Shown piece by piece: positions 6,985 to 16,933 of a stretch of DNA of 24,140 nucleotides. The notes beneath the pieces are model-generated. The model had not been told where the DNA came from and searched no databases. It worked only from the letters and a program-made list of their open reading frames with translations. The stretch spans positions 1-24,140 of the forward strand of contig QMRA01000001.1 of NCBI GenBank assembly GCA_003649155.1. Direction: 5' to 3'. The position numbers and the translations under genes were made by a program. This stretch comes from Thermoproteota archaeon (GTDB taxonomy: Archaea > Thermoproteota > Methanomethylicia > Culexarchaeales > Culexmicrobiaceae). Positions within the stretch are counted from its first letter, which is position 1; each line of letters opens with the position of its first letter.

Positions 6985-7002
6985 ATTCATGAGTTGGGAA
7001 AT

Positions 7003-8115
7003 ATGTATTACGCTTTACGTCCAGACTCACTTCTAGTTTGGAGGAGTGAGGAGGTTAAAGAGAGGCTTTCATGGTACTATGAGGTCATGAAGGACAGGAA
7101 GCCAGCCAAGTACCTAATTTGTAAGAGAATACCAGTAGAAGTTAATTTAACGGAAGCAAGCGAGGAAGAGCTTTGGGAAGAGCACAAAAGAGCAGCTGAG
7201 AGCTTTAGAAAAGCACTCGACGAGATAGTTGAAGGTGAAAAGAAGCTTGAAGACCTACCTAAGCCTAAAGTTAGCTTTCTAGACTTGAAAATCGAGCTAG
7301 TTAAGAGGATGCTCACTCACTGCAACTTCTGCGAAAGAAGATGTGGAGTTAACAGGGCTGAGGGAGTGAAGGGCTTCTGCAGACTAGACTCCAAAACATA
7401 CGTGTCGTCCTGGTTCCACCACTGGGGTGAAGAAGCTCCACTAGTTCCAAGCGGCACAATATTCTTCGGCTCATGCAATTTCAGGTGTGTCTTCTGCCAA
7501 AACTACGACATAAGTCAACTTCACCCATATGCAGGAATACAAGTTAACTCCAAGGAGCTAGCAAAAATTCAAGCTACGCTGAGGAGGGAGGGAGTGAGGA
7601 ACATTAATTACGTAGGAGGAGAGCCGACGCCCAACCTCCACACAATAATCGAATCTCTAAAATACCTCGACGTAAACGTCCCCCTACTCTGGAACAGCAA
7701 CATGTACTGCAGTGTAGAAACGATAACCATACTCTTGGAATTAATAGACATCGCCCTACCAGACTTCAAGTACGGCAATGACTCATGCGCTAAGCGCCTG
7801 TCCATGGTCGACAGGTACTTCGAAGTAGTCTCCAGAAACCACAAGATGATGCACGACTACGGCATAGACATGATCATCAGGCACCTAGTAATGCCAAACC
7901 ACGTCGAGTGCTGCACCAAGCCAATTCTAGAGTGGATAGCTGAAAACCTCCCAAGAGCAATGGTAAACATCATGGGGCAGTACAGGCCCGAATACCTAGT
8001 CGCGTGGGAGCCGGAGAAGTATCCAGACATCGCTAGGAGGCCGTCGCAAGAGGAGATGGAAGCATCCTTCAAGTATGCTGACGAGCTAGGAATATGCTAC
8101 AGACCAGTTTCTTAA
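7003..8115 (+). CDS. pflX: Radical SAM protein, PflX / pyruvate-formate-lyase-activating-enzyme-like family
   Basis: Radical SAM motif CNFRCVFCQN, upstream CNFCERRC, HWGEEAPLVPSGTIFF, VGGEPTP, WNSNMY, DFKYGND, IRHLVMPNH, NIMGQYRP. The track start is TTG 6994; ATG 7003 is also possible. Confidence 0.88.
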   Translation: MYYALRPDSLLVWRSEEVKERLSWYYEVMKDRKPAKYLICKRIPVEVNLTEASEEELWEEHKRAAESFRKALDEIVEGEKKLEDLPKPKVSFLDLKIELVKRMLTHCNFCERRCGVNRAEGVKGFCRLDSKTYVSSWFHHWGEEAPLVPSGTIFFGSCNFRCVFCQNYDISQLHPYAGIQVNSKELAKIQATLRREGVRNINYVGGEPTPNLHTIIESLKYLDVNVPLLWNSNMYCSVETITILLELIDIALPDFKYGNDSCAKRLSMVDRYFEVVSRNHKMMHDYGIDMIIRHLVMPNHVECCTKPILEWIAENLPRAMVNIMGQYRPEYLVAWEPEKYPDIARRPSQEEMEASFKYADELGICYRPVS

Positions 8116-8733
8116 AATTTCAAATGCAAGTTTCTCACTTAAATCAGGATGACATGCACCTTCCCGCGTAAAGGATAGGAGTTCTGGTTTCAACTGGCAA
8201 AGCTTCTCCTTTCTAACCCAGAAGATCGCATCAGATATTTTTGCGACTACGTCTGGAAAGTAGGGTAGAAGAAGCCACTTCCCCATAATGTTAGTACACT
8301 TGACTGGTGATACTATAATTAGCCGCTCAACCCCATACGCGAATGCTATAGTCGATAGAACTTTGAACTCACTTAAGAGAAGTCTAGATATTGCAGCTCG
8401 CTTAGCTCTAAGCTCAAATCTCCTCACTATTGGCGGAAAGTGAAATTGCATTGAAGTATACTGCTGAAGAGCTGTGTAGAATATGCATTTCACATCTGAG
8501 CATATGCTTGATAAGCTGCGAATACATTTTGATAAAGAGCCGCTAACTTCGAGGATGAATACATCCTCATCAAGGTCGGTGAGAAGCGGCATGTCAACTA
8601 TAAGTAAGCTAGGCTTCCACTTGCAAGCCAAAGCACTAATAACCCTTTCAAGCTTCAATCCAAACAGCGTAACTACTTTCCAGCCATTCGACTCTATACG
8701 CGACTTCAAAGCGTTAATAGTCCAAGAAGTCAT
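8086..8733 (-). CDS. Hypothetical protein; putative catalytically dead RecA/Rad51-fold paralog
   Basis: The order of elements mirrors the RecA core (see findings) but there is no Walker A or B. Overlaps the SWIM gene by 20 nt and pflX convergently by 30 nt. Confidence 0.5.
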   Translation of the reverse strand: MTSWTINALKSRIESNGWKVVTLFGLKLERVISALACKWKPSLLIVDMPLLTDLDEDVFILEVSGSLSKCIRSLSSICSDVKCIFYTALQQYTSMQFHFPPIVRRFELRAKRAAISRLLLSEFKVLSTIAFAYGVERLIIVSPVKCTNIMGKWLLLPYFPDVVAKISDAIFWVRKEKLCQLKPELLSFTREGACHPDLSEKLAFEILRNWSVAYS

Positions 8734-9109
8734 CCATGCTCTTCTCCTTAATCATCCTCCACAGAATCACACTTCCAACATGCGTGCATATCCTCTTCAT
8801 TCGAATAGCGGCGAATAGCTTCTTAGGGTCATAGCAGGTGCAGCTGTACACCTTGTCTTTAGGGTGAAAGGTAACTACGTAGAAGGCTTCACAATCTCCT
8901 AAACTCCCTCTCCCCCTTACAATCCACATGTTTGGTTTAGGTGTAGAGTAGACGTCGACGAGCCTCAACTTGCATCGGTAAAACCAGGAGTATGGCTTGC
9001 CGCTGAACTTCACCTTGAACTTCTCGAAGGCGCGTTCAAGCTGGTCTGCTGAAACTCCTAACTTGACTAGTACAGTGAGCCTCTTGATGTCTCTACGTCT
9101 AGAGGACAT
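8714..9109 (-). CDS. Standalone SWIM zinc-finger protein
   Basis: YSCTC-x15-CTH (CxC...CxH) preceded by WIVRG...FYVVTF beta strands. Overlaps the radA-like stop by 11 nt. Confidence 0.82.
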   Translation of the reverse strand: MSSRRRDIKRLTVLVKLGVSADQLERAFEKFKVKFSGKPYSWFYRCKLRLVDVYSTPKPNMWIVRGRGSLGDCEAFYVVTFHPKDKVYSCTCYDPKKLFAAIRMKRICTHVGSVILWRMIKEKSMDDFLDY

Positions 9110-10082
9110 CCACTAAGCCCTTCTCCGAAATTCCAAATGTTGCAGATGATCCTCTCTGCAGGTAGGGGCTATCCTCAACGAGCATCCTCCTAACTAGAAT
9201 TCCCTGACGCTTAGAGTGTTGAGGCGCCATGAATAACCTGTGAGTAGTGCCGTGAGCAACTACATGGCCTCCAGCTGCAGTAACTCCACCGCCAGCTACT
9301 GGCTTAGCAACCACGTGGTTAGTTACGATGACGTAGACGTTGTACATCATAGCTACTCTCAAGAGGAAATTTAGCATGTAGTTGAGCGTCTGCTGCCTGG
9401 CAACCAGCATCTCCCTACCCCTATACTCGGCGCGGACGTGAGAGATCAAGCTGTCAACAACGGCTAGCTTGACGCCCTCCTCCTCAATGTACTTAGGGAG
9501 AATAGTCCTTATGCAGTCTATTTGCTCGTCCACATTCATGGGCTGGAAAACAAGTACACCGGACAGAGGGTCTTCAATATTGAAGCGCTCTCCAATTTTC
9601 GCTATTCTACTCTCAGAAAAGGTGCCTTCAGTATCTATGTAGAAAGCCTTTCCACCAACACCACCTCTATTCACTGTCAATTGGACGGTGGTTGAGAGCT
9701 GGAAGCAGAGTTGAGATTTACCAGTTCCATACTCACCAACAACTTCGTAGATGCACCTGGGCTCGAGGCCTCCCTCCAATAGCTGGTCAATAGACTTTAC
9801 GCCAGTGGTTAGTCTTGGGAGCTCACTGCGCATTGAAGCGTACTCAGAGGCTCTAAGGACTTTCTGCGGCCTAAAAGCTCGCCTCACTCTCATTAAAGCT
9901 CTATTTATCCTCGAGTAATCGTCTACGTCGACGTACATTAGCAGCTCGTCCAGCCCATACAAGGCTAGCTGCCTTGGAGTTAGGATTCCAGCTTTCCTCA
10001 GCTTCTCAGCAGTTGCAGGTCCAACTCCAGGGATGTCTTCAAGCTCCTTAAAAACCTCATTCTCAAAATCCTCCACCTTCAA
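9099..10082 (-). CDS. radA: Divergent full-length RadA/Rad51-family recombinase (probable paralog)
   Basis: N-terminal HhH (IPGVGPATAEKL), LTTG..SIDQLLEGG, Walker A GEYGTGKS, YIDTEGTF, Walker B VVDS, L1 RAEYRGREMLVARQQ, GGHVVAH. Start is TTG 10082 or GTG 10076 after GGAGGTGA. Confidence 0.88.
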   Translation of the reverse strand: MKVEDFENEVFKELEDIPGVGPATAEKLRKAGILTPRQLALYGLDELLMYVDVDDYSRINRALMRVRRAFRPQKVLRASEYASMRSELPRLTTGVKSIDQLLEGGLEPRCIYEVVGEYGTGKSQLCFQLSTTVQLTVNRGGVGGKAFYIDTEGTFSESRIAKIGERFNIEDPLSGVLVFQPMNVDEQIDCIRTILPKYIEEEGVKLAVVDSLISHVRAEYRGREMLVARQQTLNYMLNFLLRVAMMYNVYVIVTNHVVAKPVAGGGVTAAGGHVVAHGTTHRLFMAPQHSKRQGILVRRMLVEDSPYLQRGSSATFGISEKGLVDVL

Positions 10083-10419
10083 TCACCTCCAAAAACAGCT
10101 TTTTCAAGTAGTTAAGGTGAAGAATGACCTTGTCAAGCTCAAAAACTAAATCGCGTGGGGTAAGTTGAGGAGAAGTAGAGGTGAGGTCTCTAAGCGCTTG
10201 GATTAGTGAATTTACCTTCCCCCTATCATAATACTCCTCGAAGAGAAGCTTACCCTCACTTCTACCTGCGTCAGAGCGCTTAGGCATGAGAATTAACTCT
10301 CTCCTTACATTTCCACTCCTAGTCAATCTGTAATTTGCAATTACGAGGCCCTTTGAAGAGGCTAGGACAACGTAGCTGAAGCCTCTCCCATCTCTATGCC
10401 ATCTAATCCAGCTACTCAT
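10063..10419 (-). CDS. Small basic/aromatic hypothetical protein (about 118 aa)
   Basis: ATG at 10419 follows GGTGATGGTG and overlaps the upstream stop (track start 10449). The 3' end overlaps radA. No family recognised. Confidence 0.6.
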   Translation of the reverse strand: MSSWIRWHRDGRGFSYVVLASSKGLVIANYRLTRSGNVRRELILMPKRSDAGRSEGKLLFEEYYDRGKVNSLIQALRDLTSTSPQLTPRDLVFELDKVILHLNYLKKLFLEVIEGGGF

Positions 10420-11755
10420 CACCATCACCCCTATAGCTTGAGTACTCATTTAGCGCTGCAATGCCGGAGGGCGTTATTCTCAAGTAGTACTTGCCATCTC
10501 TCCCAACGACATCTGCAATGAAGCCATACGCTGAAAGCACACTGATTATGCGCTGTGCTACTTCGCTACTTAGCCCTAAGACTCCTACAGCATACCCCAT
10601 GAGGGTGTCGCGGTCTGCAGCTCCTTGAAGTAGGAATGACAGTATCTGCGCAGCAGGGTCTGCTAATCCTCTAAACATTTTGTGAAGGGCAGACTCCACC
10701 TTAGGCTTAGTTGGCTTGATGACGTCCTCAACTGGAATCCTCACCTCAGGCAGTTCTTTAAATTTGAGCTCTGCAATACTAACTCTACCACCATAGAATA
10801 CGAGGAAAGCACTACTTGGAATGTAATTTACGTGCTCCAGTCGGAAGTCGGCAAGCGGGAGAAGAGCTGATAGAGCATTAAATTCCTCTTTAGAGCGTGG
10901 AGGCGATGAAAAGGCGCAATTGAGGCTAAGTCTAGCTCTGAATGCAAGTAGCATAGGGCTTCTGCAAGATAAGATTATAGCAGGATTCCTCGACCGCTTC
11001 AAAATATCTAAGATGAAGAGGGTTCTCTCAAAGGCTACAGCATACTCCTCTCTTAAAGCTCTCATTAGGCCCGGCATTAGTAGATCTGACTCCTCCAAAA
11101 CTAGTTTTACGTCGCTCCTCTCGGAAAAATTCAGGAAGAGGAGGATTGAAGCTAAAACTCTAAATTCTCTAGGTAGGTGGTGGAGATCTACTATTAGGAG
11201 AGAATTACCTACATCATCTAGCCCCAGGAATCCACTAAATGATGATCCAATTCTACCCCAAGTTAAATTGTCTAGAAGCCTTAGAAGCCTGAAGCTGTAC
11301 GGCCTAGTGGATGCTATTTGCGATTGCGATTCAATTTCAAGTATAACATCCTCAACACTAGGCTCATAAACACCTCTAGCTACGAAACGAGCTAGAGCTT
11401 GCTGCAAAATTCTAGCAGAAACTTCACTTATGTGGAAGCTCAACTTGAAAGCTTCAGAAATTTCAAAAGCTCGAATATAAGGGTCAAACCAAGATAGGTT
11501 GAAGGGAGAAATAGAGGCGTTAAAGCCGAGGCGAACTAATTTACAATCCCTGCATAATGAGCAGAGGGCAGAATACTCTCCAAAGCCGTCGATAACTATG
11601 GTCTTCTCCCAGCCCAAGGCGTCCAAAATAGATGCATTAATTTTAACTCGCTCACTAATCGGCCCAAAAGTGCCTAAAAGGCACTTGGCCACGCGAAGAC
11701 TTGAAAGTATAGACGCTAAATTTACGATCCCAAGCATTCTAGGAACAACTACCAT
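10412..11755 (-). CDS. Degenerate HerA/VirB4/FtsK-fold ATPase-like protein with C-terminal winged helix
   Basis: VIDGFGEY, SISPF, LLIVDLHHL, LVLEESD, AIILSCRSP occur in HerA-like order, and the Walker A position reads GTFGPISE. The C-terminus is wHTH-like (AQILSFL...AQRIISVLSAYGFI...YYLRITPSG). Strong GGAGGTTGGTGA RBS. Confidence 0.6.
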   Translation of the reverse strand: MVVVPRMLGIVNLASILSSLRVAKCLLGTFGPISERVKINASILDALGWEKTIVIDGFGEYSALCSLCRDCKLVRLGFNASISPFNLSWFDPYIRAFEISEAFKLSFHISEVSARILQQALARFVARGVYEPSVEDVILEIESQSQIASTRPYSFRLLRLLDNLTWGRIGSSFSGFLGLDDVGNSLLIVDLHHLPREFRVLASILLFLNFSERSDVKLVLEESDLLMPGLMRALREEYAVAFERTLFILDILKRSRNPAIILSCRSPMLLAFRARLSLNCAFSSPPRSKEEFNALSALLPLADFRLEHVNYIPSSAFLVFYGGRVSIAELKFKELPEVRIPVEDVIKPTKPKVESALHKMFRGLADPAAQILSFLLQGAADRDTLMGYAVGVLGLSSEVAQRIISVLSAYGFIADVVGRDGKYYLRITPSGIAALNEYSSYRGDGDE

Positions 11756-12158
11756 GAATCACCAACCTCCAAATGCAAATGGCCTTCATTAGAATGGATG
11801 TTAAGAGGAGGAGAATTGCGGAGTTAATGGAGCATTTCAAATAGGATATGAAGGTTAAAGCGTCAACTAGAAATGATAAGGTTAGGATGGACTTCGCGCG
11901 CTTAACTACTCTCGAAGAAGGTAGGCAGATAGACTTAATATTGTAGAGGCTTTTCAATTCGCGAGATGGAAGTATAAATTCACCATCCCTAAGAGCATAA
12001 TTGCCTGCTAGAAGCTCATTTAGAGCAGCATCTAATCCTTCACTTGAAATGATCATTGCTGGAATCTTTCCTCTTAAAACTAGAGCTAAAGATAGAGATT
12101 CAACATCACCTTTTCGCTCAAAAACACTATCAATTCGCATCTTATTTTGGGAAATCAT
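11739..12158 (-). CDS. Hypothetical protein (139 aa)
   Basis: ATGA overlap with the upstream gene and 17-nt overlap with the downstream gene place it inside the operon. No family recognised. Confidence 0.5.
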   Translation of the reverse strand: MISQNKMRIDSVFERKGDVESLSLALVLRGKIPAMIISSEGLDAALNELLAGNYALRDGEFILPSRELKSLYNIKSICLPSSRVVKRAKSILTLSFLVDALTFISYLKCSINSAILLLLTSILMKAICIWRLVIHGSCS

Positions 12159-12739
12159 AGCTCAACACCCCAAAAGCTCGCTGTTAATAATGCGCTGACC
12201 AGCTCTTCGCCTTTCAGAATCTTAACTTCACTAGCAGGTATCGATGTAGCCAGAGAATTTAGAATTCCAGATATTATTGAAACTGCCTCATCCTTACTTC
12301 GAATAGATGAGGAAATCCGTGGACAAAGTAGGTAAAAGTCTCCACGAGACTTATTCCTAATAAAAATGAAGGAATAATCTGCAGGAATGCTCTGCAAAAT
12401 CTTCTTGAAAAGCTCTTCATCCCTAATTTCACGGAAAGCAAGAGCTCCAGAGACTGAGAATCCACCTAAACCTGATGAGCAGAGAGCTACGCAGCCCAGT
12501 ACGCCGAGTTTAATATTGACATCAAATATTGTTTTTGAAAAATTGCTGACTTTTAACTTCTCAATAATCACAGTCTTTTTAACAATGCATTTATTTTTCT
12601 TGTTTTTGCTGTTTTTTAATTTTTTAATTAAGTAGATTATTAGAAATGATGGGATAAGTATGAAGGTAAGGATGTGAAAGTTGGCTGCGAGCAGGAGGAG
12701 AGATAGTAGTAATGTGATCAAGCTGAGCAAGTCGACCAC
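12155..12739 (-). CDS. Membrane protein with N-terminal hydrophobic segment(s), Lys/Asn-rich linker and soluble alpha/beta domain
   Basis: About 35 hydrophobic N-terminal residues followed by KKLKNSKNKKNK. First gene of the minus-strand operon. Confidence 0.62.
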   Translation of the reverse strand: MVDLLSLITLLLSLLLLAANFHILTFILIPSFLIIYLIKKLKNSKNKKNKCIVKKTVIIEKLKVSNFSKTIFDVNIKLGVLGCVALCSSGLGGFSVSGALAFREIRDEELFKKILQSIPADYSFIFIRNKSRGDFYLLCPRISSSIRSKDEAVSIISGILNSLATSIPASEVKILKGEELVSALLTASFWGVEL

Positions 12740-12866
12740 CGGTTTAAGGTGGAACGTGGAGGAAGTTAAGCATGTTTTAGATGTCCGGCGAACAGCTTAC
12801 ATTCGATGAGTGGCGAATAATTAATTGCTAGGTGGGGTTGAGTTATTTGATGAAGTTGGTGGAACA

Positions 12867-13523
12867 TTGAGTAACAGTGTAGAGTTGAAAGCTGAGGAGC
12901 TGAAGGTTTTAGCTGACAAAACTAGGTTGAGAATACTTGTATTGCTTAAGGAGAGAGGAGAGCTTGGCTTAAATGATATTTCAAATTTGACTGGTAAAGC
13001 CAAGTCCACGATTTCAGATCACTTGAAGCTCTTGCTCAAGGCCGGGTTTATAGAGAGGAAGGAGGCGGATAGGGGGTTTCTATACTTTTTAACTGAGAAG
13101 GGTGCGAGTGTTCTTCCGCTGATTGAAGATAAGCCTTATACAGTTAGGGTTGAAGAAGAAGCAGCCTCCTCCAGCTTCATGGTTAACATTGAGTTGTGGC
13201 TTGAGAGGATTGGCAGGGGTAGAAGACATGTGGTACCTTCAGTTTTACTGGGCTTGTCAATGATCATTCTTGGGTACATGCCGTTATCAGCGGTGGTAAC
13301 GTCATTAGCTCTAGGAGCAATTTTAGGATTGCTGGATGCGAATGCCCGCGAATTTGCTGAAAGCTCAGCATTATATGCAGTTTTCACTGCAATTTCAGCC
13401 ATCTTGAGGGAGTGGAGTTTAGCTATGATACTCACCGTCCTACCTTCACTTGCAATCTTCATTTTAATTGGAGGAATTGCGTGGATAGGGGTTAAACTCA
13501 TAATGCAGAAGTGGATAAGGTAG
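12867..13523 (+). CDS. ArsR-type winged-helix transcriptional regulator fused to a C-terminal multi-TM domain
   Basis: LKVLADKTRLRILVLL, ISNLTGKAKSTISDHLKLLLKAGFIE, YFLTEKG, then 3-4 hydrophobic helices. The track start is 12825; TTG 12867 follows GGTGGA. Confidence 0.82.
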   Translation: MSNSVELKAEELKVLADKTRLRILVLLKERGELGLNDISNLTGKAKSTISDHLKLLLKAGFIERKEADRGFLYFLTEKGASVLPLIEDKPYTVRVEEEAASSSFMVNIELWLERIGRGRRHVVPSVLLGLSMIILGYMPLSAVVTSLALGAILGLLDANAREFAESSALYAVFTAISAILREWSLAMILTVLPSLAIFILIGGIAWIGVKLIMQKWIR

Positions 13524-15320: not shown

Positions 15321-16040
15321 TTGCACACAGAAGGAGGGAAAACTGTGGAGCAGGTTAAGGCGATAATCGAGAAGGCATTGATGGAGAATAGGAAGTACCT
15401 TCTGGAAAGTGAAGCTAAGAAGATATGCGAAGCATATGGAATACCAGTCACACGATTTAAAGTCGCAACAAACGAAGAGGAAGCCGTAAAATTTGCCAAT
15501 GAAATAGGCTACCCAGTAGTTTTCAAAATAGTCTCGCCAGACGTAATTCACAAATCAGATGTAGGAGGAGTCATACTCAACATTAAAAATGACGAGGAAG
15601 CCAAGAAAGCTTACAAGCAAATATTAGAAAACGTCAAAAAGCACGTTCCAGATGCAAAAATAGTTGGAGTCTTCGTTCAAGAAATGGCGCCGCAAGGAAC
15701 AGAAGTGATAGTCGGAGCGCTAAAAGACCCGCAATTTGGCCCCACAGTAATGTTTGGTCTAGGGGGCATATTCGTAGAAATTCTGAAAGACGTCACTTTC
15801 AGAATAGCGCCAGTAACTAAGGAAGAAGCCGAGGAGATGATCAAGGAGATTAAAGGCTATCCGATACTTAGAGGCTATAGAGGGAAGCCTCCTTCCGACG
15901 TGGAAGCAATAGTAGACATAATAGTCAAGGTATCTAAATTAGTGACGGACTTCCCACAAATAAGCCAGCTAGACTTAAACCCGATATTCGTCTACGAAAA
16001 GGGAGCAAAAGTCATTGATGCGAGGATAATTCTAGAATGA
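15321..16040 (+). CDS. acdB: ADP-forming acyl/acetyl-CoA synthetase beta subunit (ATP-grasp)
   Basis: LLESEAK, GYPVVFKIVSPDVIHKSDVGGV, VQEM, DPQFGPTVMFGLGGIFVEILKD, LDLNP. Confidence 0.92.
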   Translation: MHTEGGKTVEQVKAIIEKALMENRKYLLESEAKKICEAYGIPVTRFKVATNEEEAVKFANEIGYPVVFKIVSPDVIHKSDVGGVILNIKNDEEAKKAYKQILENVKKHVPDAKIVGVFVQEMAPQGTEVIVGALKDPQFGPTVMFGLGGIFVEILKDVTFRIAPVTKEEAEEMIKEIKGYPILRGYRGKPPSDVEAIVDIIVKVSKLVTDFPQISQLDLNPIFVYEKGAKVIDARIILE

Positions 16041-16933
16041 ACGAAGCCTACGAGCAAGAGCTGAGGACCATAGAGGGAAAAATCAAAGAAGCTGAGAGCA
16101 TAATTAGAGATCTGAGAAGTAAGCAAGAGAACCTCAAAAGCCAGTTGAGAAGTGTAGTAGAGCGAATTAGGAGAGAAAGGCAGAAGGTAGAAGACTTCAT
16201 TAGTAGCGTAGAGGGAGTGAAAGCAAAGTTAGCTGAAGTGAGAAGTAGAATTAGAGAGGTTAAGGAGGAAATAAGAAGCCTTAAGAAAAGCATTAGGGAA
16301 AAAGCGGATAAAGCTAGGAAGATGAAGCTTCAATCATTAAATATAAGGAGAGAAGTTAGGAGTAGTTTAAAGCAAATTAAAGAGAGAATTGAGAAGCTGG
16401 AATGGTATCATCAAACGCACCCACTGAGCAGAGAGGAAGAAAAGAGAATTGTCAGTCAAATAGAAGATCTACATAAGAAAAAGAAGAAACTTGAAATTGC
16501 AATTTCACTTGAAGAGAAAGCCATAGAGCTTCAAGTCGAAGTTCAAGCTTCGAAGAGCAGGCTAAGTAAATTGCAGAGCGAGTTGGAGGAGCTTCTGAAT
16601 AAGCTAAATGAGTTGAAGGAAGAAAGAGAGAAGATATTGTCCAAGAAGAAGGAGCAGTGGCAGCAAGTATGTAGCTTGAAGGATGAAGCCAGTAAAATTA
16701 GAAGTGAGCTGAGCGCCATTAGCGAGAAGATCCAAGAACTTCAAAAGGAGTTAATCAACCTTAAGGCTAAGCGCAATGCCATTCTCCTTAAGATCGAGAA
16801 GGAAAAAAAGAGAAAGGCAATGATAAGATTAGCTGAAGTAGCTAAGGAGAAACTGAAGCGCGGAGAGAGGCTGAGTTTCGAAGAATTTAAAGCGCTGATG
16901 GAAGTAGATAAAAATGTGATGACAACTTTATAG
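16037..16933 (+). CDS. Long archaeal coiled-coil protein (COG1340-like)
   Basis: Continuous heptad-like E/K/L/I pattern, central LEWYHQTHPLSREEEKRIV, terminal KLKRGERLSFEE. ATGA overlap with acdB. Confidence 0.72.
   Translation: MNEAYEQELRTIEGKIKEAESIIRDLRSKQENLKSQLRSVVERIRRERQKVEDFISSVEGVKAKLAEVRSRIREVKEEIRSLKKSIREKADKARKMKLQSLNIRREVRSSLKQIKERIEKLEWYHQTHPLSREEEKRIVSQIEDLHKKKKKLEIAISLEEKAIELQVEVQASKSRLSKLQSELEELLNKLNELKEEREKILSKKKEQWQQVCSLKDEASKIRSELSAISEKIQELQKELINLKAKRNAILLKIEKEKKRKAMIRLAEVAKEKLKRGERLSFEEFKALMEVDKNVMTTL

Follow-up and report, generated by a model that had tools for sequence, protein, structure and literature searches.

Mediators built from Rad51 paralogs are central to genome stability in eukaryotes, and both their evolutionary origin and their basic mechanism are debated. 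RAD51 paralog-containing complexes are also studied for their relevance to cancer, and one of the paralogs involved, SWSAP1, carries both Walker A and Walker B motifs [PMC6316741]. Together with the SWIM protein SWS1 (and SPIDR) it constitutes the human counterpart of the yeast Shu complex, Shu2-Shu1-Psy3-Csm2. Orthologs of Shu2 have been described as conserved "from archaea to humans", without detail [PMC5727457]. The partnership between SWIM proteins and Rad51 paralogs has been characterized experimentally only in eukaryotes. On the archaeal side, the recombination helpers reported so far are single proteins, RadB and aRadC, which are thought to modulate RadA. Here, we discuss a minus-strand run of seven consecutive open reading frames (ORFs), g1 to g7, at positions 8086-12739 of a 24,140-nt stretch of DNA (contig QMRA01000001.1 of a Thermoproteota archaeon of the family Culexmicrobiaceae; "the window" below refers to this whole stretch). 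This operon is predicted to encode a set of proteins resembling a Rad51-paralog/SWIM mediator, extended by a membrane protein and a HerA-like protein.

In the order of transcription, the genes encode a membrane protein (g1), a protein restricted to the genus (g2), a degenerate protein with a HerA-type fold and a winged helix-turn-helix (wHTH) domain (g3), a small basic protein (g4), a divergent RadA (g5), a SWIM protein (g6), and a RecA-like protein lacking Walker motifs (g7) [Table 1]. Apart from the genus restriction of g2, this is the composition given in the original prediction for the overlapping ORFs, and the profile and structure searches described below are consistent with it throughout. 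In our view, the odds are slightly better than even that the operon provides an accessory recombination module acting alongside canonical RadA, in which a heteromer of the Rad51-paralog type, made up of g5, g6, and g7, would assist or cap RadA filaments. The full-text literature searched contains no description of an archaeal SWIM-RadA operon, and the Culexarchaeia paper is silent on it. The earlier impression that no operon of such composition had been described thus holds for that literature. The homologs of the operon genes are annotated as hypothetical or are misannotated.

As judged from its sequence, g5 is a full-length RadA paralog with intact ATPase motifs. It matches Pfam Rad51 with 185 bits and the helix-hairpin-helix (HhH) family HHH_5 with 33 bits. 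Against NCBIfam, it barely reaches the cut-off of the RadA model NF003301 (262.3 bits; cut-off 259) and remains below that of TIGR02236 (240 bits; cut-off 361). The separate canonical radA presupposed in the original prediction is located on contig C44 of the same genome (310 bits). In each of five further genomes, the operon copy is likewise accompanied by one or two canonical RadA genes (315-341 bits), and over the six genomes the operon RadA scores 184-236 bits. A maximum-likelihood tree places eight canonical RadAs apart from 27 operon RadAs with support 90/92. The RadA tree follows taxonomy, and its branches imply that the operon RadAs evolve faster than canonical RadA.

Motif-by-motif alignment reveals a difference at the FxxA motif. 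Its Phe is present in 8/8 canonical RadAs and in 0/16 operon RadAs, where the position is occupied by Val, Ile, Leu, Ala, Thr, or Cys (the window sequence reads KVLRA). Walker A of the GEYGTGKS type is found in 15/15 g5 orthologs, and the operon RadAs retain the HhH glycines, the DTEGTF glutamate, Walker B, and the Arg-rich L1 region. In Culexarchaeales, L2 is two to four residues shorter, and TNQ has become TNH in the operon RadAs of the window's family. The best PDB relatives of the operon RadA family are RadA/Rad51 (E 1e-91), with the eukaryotic paralogs far more distant. These features suggest that g5 is an active ATPase and DNA binder unable to donate the canonical protomer-protomer contact. 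Since the donor Phe is lost, g5 fits a filament-end or heteromeric role better than that of a homofilament. As a separate observation, Culexmicrobium cathedralense (G001) and one Nezhaarchaeales genome (G026) have three full-length RadA genes each; besides the operon RadA, these are two canonical-type RadAs per genome (305-330 bits), at G001:C1:566450-567169 and 649690-650406, and at G026:C2:11976-12692 and C1:385416-386135.

The last gene of the operon, g7, gave no family match in sequence searches (Pfam, NCBIfam, and PDB profile). A structural model built from 16 slot-equivalent sequences has a predicted local distance difference test score (pLDDT) of 89.9, and Foldseek matches it to XRCC3, RAD51C, RAD51D, RAD51, and RecA at E about 1e-7. 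A second, independent all-against-all aligner gave Z scores of 14.2 for XRCC3-RAD51C, 12.9 for yeast Rad51, 11.7 for RadB, and 10.6 for Sso2452. Among Swiss-Prot models, RadB is the nearest, and a C. briggsae RFS-1-type protein is also found among the matches; none of Csm2, Psy3, and Shu1 is present among the listed structural matches. Walker A is found in 0/16 g7-slot sequences, in which the first strand is followed by a conserved Gly and then by a helix. The modeling therefore presents g7 as a RecA core of RadB size without the nucleotide-binding loop.

The assignment of g6 as a SWIM-type zinc-finger protein is based on C90, C92, C108, and H110, which are invariant across 15 g6 orthologs of 101-148 amino acids (aa) and form the pattern CxC-x14-15-CxH. 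In SWS1 proteins, the SWIM motif CxC...Xn...CxH is extended to CxHxxA [PMC6316741]. The position three residues after the His is Ala (x-G-A) in 8/15 of the g6 orthologs and Ser (x-G-S) in the remaining 7/15, including the window's g6. Hence, the g6 family consists of small proteins with a SWIM zinc finger as their sole recognizable domain, in which the extended motif is matched or nearly matched. The g6 family profile aligns with Pyrobaculum proteins at an hhalign E of 1e-31; these are named "SWIM zinc finger family protein" by both NCBI and UniProt and score 19.5 bits against the Pfam SWIM model PF04434 (cut-off 19.6). Moreover, 64 of the 100 nearest clusters in the Atlas language-model feature space of a g6 ortholog are SWIM clusters. 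The close homologs of g6 are all annotated as "hypothetical".

A HMMER scan of 1.84 billion representatives with the g6 family returned 217 clusters at E <= 1e-3, which include small stand-alone proteins, a 265-aa fusion (see below), and longer proteins of 480-1100 aa. Where the latter were checked (P0135, P0148, P0155, P0159, and P0147), the SWIM domain, corresponding to query residues ~40-120, is N-terminal to XPD/DinG-type helicase domains; P0155 also contains both intein and LAGLIDADG homing-endonuclease domains, whereas the LAGLIDADG match of P0159 is weak. Collectively, the sequence data point to g6 as a SWIM-type module used in DNA-repair contexts.

The trio g5-g6-g7 thus recalls the Shu complex in that it combines the gene of a small SWIM-only protein with those of RecA/Rad51-fold proteins. 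Of the latter, g7 is devoid of ATPase motifs as are Csm2, Psy3, and Shu1, and g5 has them, as do RFS-1 and SWSAP1. The closest composition is that of the C. elegans RFS-1/RIP-1/SWS-1 trimer, in which a SWIM protein is combined with an ATPase paralog and a small RecA-like protein. However, no sequence similarity between g6 and Shu2 was detectable in the PDB profile search. In addition, g5 retains the HhH domain and is near-canonical, not a highly diverged paralog; the dead HerA/VirB4-like wHTH protein, the small protein g4, and the membrane anchor have no counterpart in Shu complexes; and one archaeal family lacks the SWIM protein while retaining the rest of the operon. Of the Shu-like system proposed in the original prediction, the composition (an ATPase-competent RadA paralog, a SWIM protein, and a P-loop-less RecA-like protein) is upheld.

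Two other groups of proteins invite comparison. RadB and aRadC (e.g., Sso2452) share with g7 a core-only RecA fold of RadB size, and they are represented among its structural matches (see above). In contrast to g7, they keep the P-loop. To our knowledge, no operon is on record in which either is joined by a SWIM protein or by a second full-length RadA. In structural searches, g7 comes closest to chains of XRCC3, RAD51C, RAD51D, and XRCC2 in the human BCDX2 and CX3 complexes, and the titles of those PDB entries describe the capping of RAD51 filaments. The loss of the donor Phe in g5 fits such an end-binding or capping role. However, the human complexes have no SWIM subunit, and none of the archaeal proteins is the ortholog of a particular paralog.

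The linkage between SWIM and RadA-family genes is not confined to the operon discussed here, as three further arrangements were identified. In one genome (G131) and on an independent Joint Genome Institute contig, the last gene after RadA encodes a 265-aa fusion, in which the N-terminal half is SWIM and the C-terminal 150 aa occupy the g7 slot. Elsewhere (G303, G325, and a Guaymas metagenome-assembled genome, MAG), a gene for a 265-aa KaiC-like protein of the RecA superfamily (Pfam KaiC, 180 bits) overlaps a SWIM gene. The fourth arrangement is found in Pyrobaculum-type genomes [G057, G266 (Pyrobaculum ferrireducens), and G202; L105-L110], each of which carries two to six diverged copies of a cassette. 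Its order is a 258-318-aa protein, a HerA/VirB4-like ATPase of ~305 aa, a SWIM protein of ~190 aa, a ~145-aa protein, and a Rad51-family protein of ~311 aa. The four arrangements, including the fusion, support a functional coupling of SWIM and RadA-family proteins.

The first protein of the Pyrobaculum cassettes has a C-terminus that by eye resembles a winged helix, and no membrane protein is present in this slot. The cassette ATPase is compact, with an intact GLPGTGKT Walker A and DEAH Walker B. The Rad51-family proteins score 72-124 bits, and one RadA paralog is annotated as "Fis family transcriptional regulator". In the tree, the cassette RadA genes nest within the operon RadA clade, with an SH-like approximate likelihood ratio test (SH-aLRT) value of 93 for operon plus cassette. 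Cassette copies within one genome are 50-77% identical, suggesting that they are old paralogs and not recent transpositions. Some copies are cut down to the SWIM gene and a 135-aa gene, and these are next to a superoxide dismutase gene. The other slots are less comparable: hhalign of g3 against the Pyrobaculum ATPase is weak (E 0.13), and g4 and g7 against the 145-aa protein, as well as g1 against the first cassette protein, gave no match. The RadA tree and the gene content suggest that the SWIM-linked RadA paralog in Thermoproteota had a single origin. It appears to have stayed with SWIM and a HerA-like protein, whose ATPase would be active in Pyrobaculum and dead in the present operon.

To follow the operon across genomes, 11-kb regions around g3 orthologs were compared; a g3-based search found such orthologs in 26 of 41 related genomes. 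The recurrent array starts with a ~200-aa protein bearing an N-terminal hydrophobic hairpin, which is followed by g3-like and g4-like proteins (410-490 and 110-130 aa, respectively), RadA (~320 aa), SWIM (107-148 aa), and the occupant of the g7 slot (130-215 aa). In the more distant loci, the equivalence of the g7 slot is positional, as the g7 profile did not recognize those proteins. Within the class Methanomethylicia, the six-gene array was found in 16 loci spread over seven families, and additional Thermoproteota MAGs with the array were found through the SWIM profile. The order thus recurs in Culexarchaeales, Nezhaarchaeales, other Methanomethylicia, and further Thermoproteota, giving synteny of six of the seven genes in >25 loci overall. 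The remaining gene, g2, gave no family match in Pfam or NCBIfam, and it has an ortholog solely in the same-genus locus L018 (50% identity); elsewhere, g1 abuts g3. Hence, the conserved unit is six genes, and the co-occurrence envisaged for all seven in the original prediction applies to all except the 139-aa g2. Methanomethylicaceae of the Methanosuratincola type (locus L032 of G016; family f5) retain g1-g3-g4-RadA-g7, which would amount to a naturally occurring "SWIM-less" form of the operon.

The proteins encoded upstream of the RadA paralog are more enigmatic. The model of g3 (pLDDT 86.9) is matched by Foldseek to VirB4 (4ag5/4ag6; E 1e-9, TM score 0.53-0.63), and further matches are Sulfolobus HerA (4d2i), DndH, and the HerAs of defense systems (SIR2-HerA and DUF4297-HerA). 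In the AlphaFold database, the matching clusters are named HerA central domain, DUF87, AAA-like/AAA_10, and TraG P-loop. Pfam DUF87 is detected on one Methanosuratincola g3 ortholog, and the PDB profile search gave a marginal VirB4 match (E 0.067). In addition to the ATPase-domain fold, g3 shares with the VirB4/HerA/FtsK clade the motif order D-x-x-G-E-Y, N-P-F, and acidic Walker B, which in g3 reads IVIDxxGEY, NASI(N/S)PF, VDxSHLP, and an acidic hhhhE(D/E)xD; a small membrane protein before g3 is a further likeness. Helices at model residues 92-172 can be read by inspection as the helical insertion of VirB4/HerA-type proteins, and the last ~85 residues form a winged helix. However, the P-loop site is GTFGPISER-like, and Walker A (GxxxxGK[ST]) is found in 0/16 orthologs, with the acidic Walker B position mostly retained. 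The family also differs from the clade in having no HAS-barrel and no NurA nuclease partner and in its fused C-terminal winged helix. These sequence features suggest that g3 is a pseudo-ATPase with a DNA-binding domain, and, lacking Walker A in 16/16 orthologs, it cannot serve as a translocation motor.

As for its neighbors, g4 lies between g3 and RadA in every operon locus. By eye, its N-terminal half is β-rich and its C-terminal half helical; no match was found in Pfam (also across orthologs), by PDB profile, or in the Atlas. The hydrophobic hairpin of g1 covers residues 1-42, is conserved at the N-terminus in 20 orthologs, and is followed by a Lys/Arg-rich linker; searches with g1 in Pfam (also across orthologs) and by PDB profile gave no match. 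A role of g1 and g4 as scaffold or tether is guesswork.

The following model is consistent with these data. The products of g5, g6, and g7 would assemble as a heteromeric Rad51-paralog-type mediator, which would bind single-stranded DNA or the end of a canonical RadA filament. Binding at the filament end is proposed since the FxxA contact is one that g5 could probably accept but would be unable to donate. The mediator might then nucleate, stabilize, or cap the RadA filament, as Shu complexes and BCDX2/CX3 do for RAD51. More tentatively, the dead HerA-like wHTH protein g3, together with g4 and the membrane-anchored g1, could constitute a DNA-binding scaffold that places the module at the membrane, and a membrane-integrated ArsR-type protein encoded divergently from the operon may control its expression. 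These latter suggestions come from the architecture of the locus. A bolder version, which we consider rather unlikely, is that the pairing of SWIM with Rad51 paralogs was already present in Thermoproteota, shares ancestry with SWS1-type mediators, and is tethered to the membrane via a dead VirB4/HerA-like ring and an anchor. In a wider context, this compact operon from a thermophile would provide a simple system for testing how a SWIM-paralog pair acts on recombinase filaments, and it would test whether the pairing predates eukaryotes. Moreover, the presence of a membrane anchor and a membrane-bound regulator alongside the dead HerA/VirB4-like protein may point to recombination organized at the archaeal membrane.

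Several points weigh against a mediator of this kind. The SWIM gene was not found in the 32 Methanomethylicaceae genomes searched, with the rest of the operon persisting, which suggests that SWIM is dispensable in that lineage. The Pfam SWIM model PF04434, which has 38 positions, was not significant for the window's g6 on its own, across the 15 orthologs (2/15 matched, at E 0.16), or in a six-frame search of the genome. Likewise, the profile of 15 g6 orthologs found no match at E <= 10 among all PDB sequences, a set that presumably includes the structure of the Shu complex. As a consequence of these two results, the kinship of g6 with SWS1/Shu2 has to be argued from motif and context. The SWIM domain also occurs on XPD-like helicases and, in Pyrobaculum, beside a HerA-like ATPase that is active, and hence the partner of SWIM could be DNA or the ATPase, rather than RecA-fold proteins. 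With respect to the fusion, its C-terminal half is collinear with the g7 profile, but the match is weak (hhalign E 0.0013, probability 19%). Finally, g1 and g4 are without a recognizable fold.

Other explanations should be considered in the light of the same data. That g5 itself exchanges strands on a special substrate (stalled forks or a multi-copy chromosome, for example), with g6 and g7 as loaders and the winged helix of g3 as a sensor of DNA structure, would accord with the retention in g5 of all catalytic and DNA-binding elements other than the FxxA Phe, and with its being much nearer to true RadA/Rad51 than to the eukaryotic paralogs. The presence of two canonical RadA genes in some genomes suggests subfunctionalization in the group, which also favors such a stand-alone recombinase. 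Nevertheless, the Phe needed for polymerization is lost in 16/16 operon RadAs, whereas it is kept in all canonical ones, which argues against long homofilaments, and the gene evolves faster than canonical RadA. We therefore regard this explanation as unlikely.

The features of g1 and g3 raise a different possibility, i.e., a membrane DNA-handling machine in which g1, g3, and g4 would receive DNA that enters or is extruded at the membrane, much as VirB3-VirB4 or the Ced system does, and pass it on to g5-g7 for integration. The VirB4 ATPase domain is the best structural match of g3, which is directly preceded by a small two-helix membrane protein just as VirB3 precedes VirB4; the neighboring regulator is membrane-integrated, and the equivalent Pyrobaculum ATPase has both Walker motifs intact. 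However, with Walker A missing in all 16 orthologs, g3 would have no power for translocation. Furthermore, g1 has a single hydrophobic hairpin, no polytopic channel, pilin, or other component of a type IV secretion or Ced system is present in the window, and the Pyrobaculum cassettes have no membrane protein in their first slot. The operon differs from the Ced system in particular by having neither an active CedB-like ATPase nor polytopic CedA or another channel gene. The suggestion in the original prediction that DNA is received at the membrane, as by CedB, is thus weakened, and we find the DNA-handling machine quite improbable. Still less is to be said for a defense or anti-mobile-element system with a RecA-like sensor and a HerA-like scaffold, which we rate as very improbable. 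It would find a parallel in the HerA-containing bacterial defense systems, where HerA-fold proteins such as those of SIR2-HerA and DUF4297-HerA, both among the matches of g3, partner effectors, and the diverged cassettes in the three Pyrobaculum-type genomes examined could be seen in the same light. Against it, PADLOC and PHROGs scans returned only generic RecA and wHTH matches, with no defense or phage family; no nuclease or other effector is present; the ATPase of g3 is dead; and the locus is single copy, with housekeeping flanks conserved across the order and a RadA tree that follows taxonomy. An accessory module in which g5-g6-g7 assist canonical RadA is thus the reading that we prefer.

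Turning to the architecture of the locus, neighboring genes overlap, in the order g1 to g7, by 4, 17, 38, 20, 11, and 20 nt, where 38 nt refers to the longest g4 ORF. An inner ATG of g4 at 10419, with GGGGTGATGGTG directly before it, reduces the g3/g4 overlap to 8 nt. This start agrees with the starts of the orthologs, and with it the overlaps of 4-20 nt given in the original prediction hold. The strong ribosome-binding sites that it had pointed out correspond to Shine-Dalgarno sequences of the GGAGGT/GGTGA type before g3, g4, g5, and g7; none is present before g1. Compared with a same-genus genome, the ratio of nonsynonymous to synonymous substitution rates (Ka/Ks) ranges from 0.04 (g5) to 0.33 (g2) over all seven genes, with Ks near saturation, which indicates that purifying selection acts on every one of them. 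Together with the synteny described above, this shows that the gene array is no chance arrangement. Near-identical sequence is found in several sediment and hydrothermal-vent metagenomes, all of them DNA runs. At its 3′ end, g7 overlaps the 3′ end of a convergent radical-SAM gene (6994-8115, plus strand) by 30 nt (8086-8115), leaving no space for a separate terminator in between.

Table 1. Features of the operon, its divergent neighbor, and related SWIM-containing loci. Coordinates without a prefix refer to the window; those with an L number refer to the respective locus.
Feature	Coordinates	Strand	Description
g1	12155-12739	-	194 aa; first operon gene; N-terminal hydrophobic hairpin, basic linker, soluble domain of ~140 aa
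g2	11739-12158	-	139 aa; hydrophobic C-terminus, residues 101-135; between g1 and g3
g3	10412-11755	-	447 aa; VirB4/HerA-fold protein without Walker A (predicted); C-terminal winged helix-turn-helix
g4	10063-10419	-	118 aa; small basic protein; longest ORF 10063-10449 (128 aa)
g5	9099-10082	-	327 aa; TTG start; full-length RadA paralog (predicted)
g6	8714-9109	-	131 aa; basic; SWIM-type zinc finger CTC-x15-CTH (predicted)
g7	8086-8733	-	215 aa; RecA/RadB-like core without P-loop (modeled); last operon gene
Divergent intergenic region	12740-12824	.	85 bp; separates g1 from the ArsR-type gene and presumably holds the promoters of the two
ArsR-type wHTH gene	12825-13523	+	232 aa; divergent from the operon; Pfam HTH_5/ArsR E 7e-13
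KaiC-like + SWIM pairs	L095:731-1869; L096:1486-2724; L045:5210-6348		Other operon genes not nearby
Pyrobaculum-type cassette (example)	L108:2321-5916		

The source genome is a MAG that is 58% complete and consists of 161 contigs. The operon is flanked by housekeeping genes, including those for phosphoglucomutase, a cis-prenyltransferase, Maf, Thg1, a radical-SAM enzyme, a MoCF-type protein, and a GPN-loop ATPase, among others. The gene order radical-SAM/operon/ArsR-type gene/MoCF is constant across the taxonomic order, and no tRNA, integrase, or transposase is present in the window. Together with the scans mentioned above, these findings bear out the view in the original prediction that the locus resides in the chromosome and is not a decayed provirus or plasmid; the locus is chromosomal and vertically inherited.

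The ArsR-type protein has hydrophobic segments at residues 135-174 and 196-229, so that its C-terminal half is multi-pass. A divergent neighbor with an ArsR-type wHTH and several C-terminal hydrophobic segments is also found in families f1, f3, f4, and f5. As these segments are present wherever the gene is adjacent to the operon, the protein is read as a membrane-integrated regulator, and it probably regulates the operon. Elsewhere in the window, a 298-aa protein with weak matches to coiled-coil-type Pfam families (Snapin/Pallidin and TPR_MLP1_2) is encoded on the plus strand at 16037-16933, between an ATP-grasp gene and a DUF373 gene.

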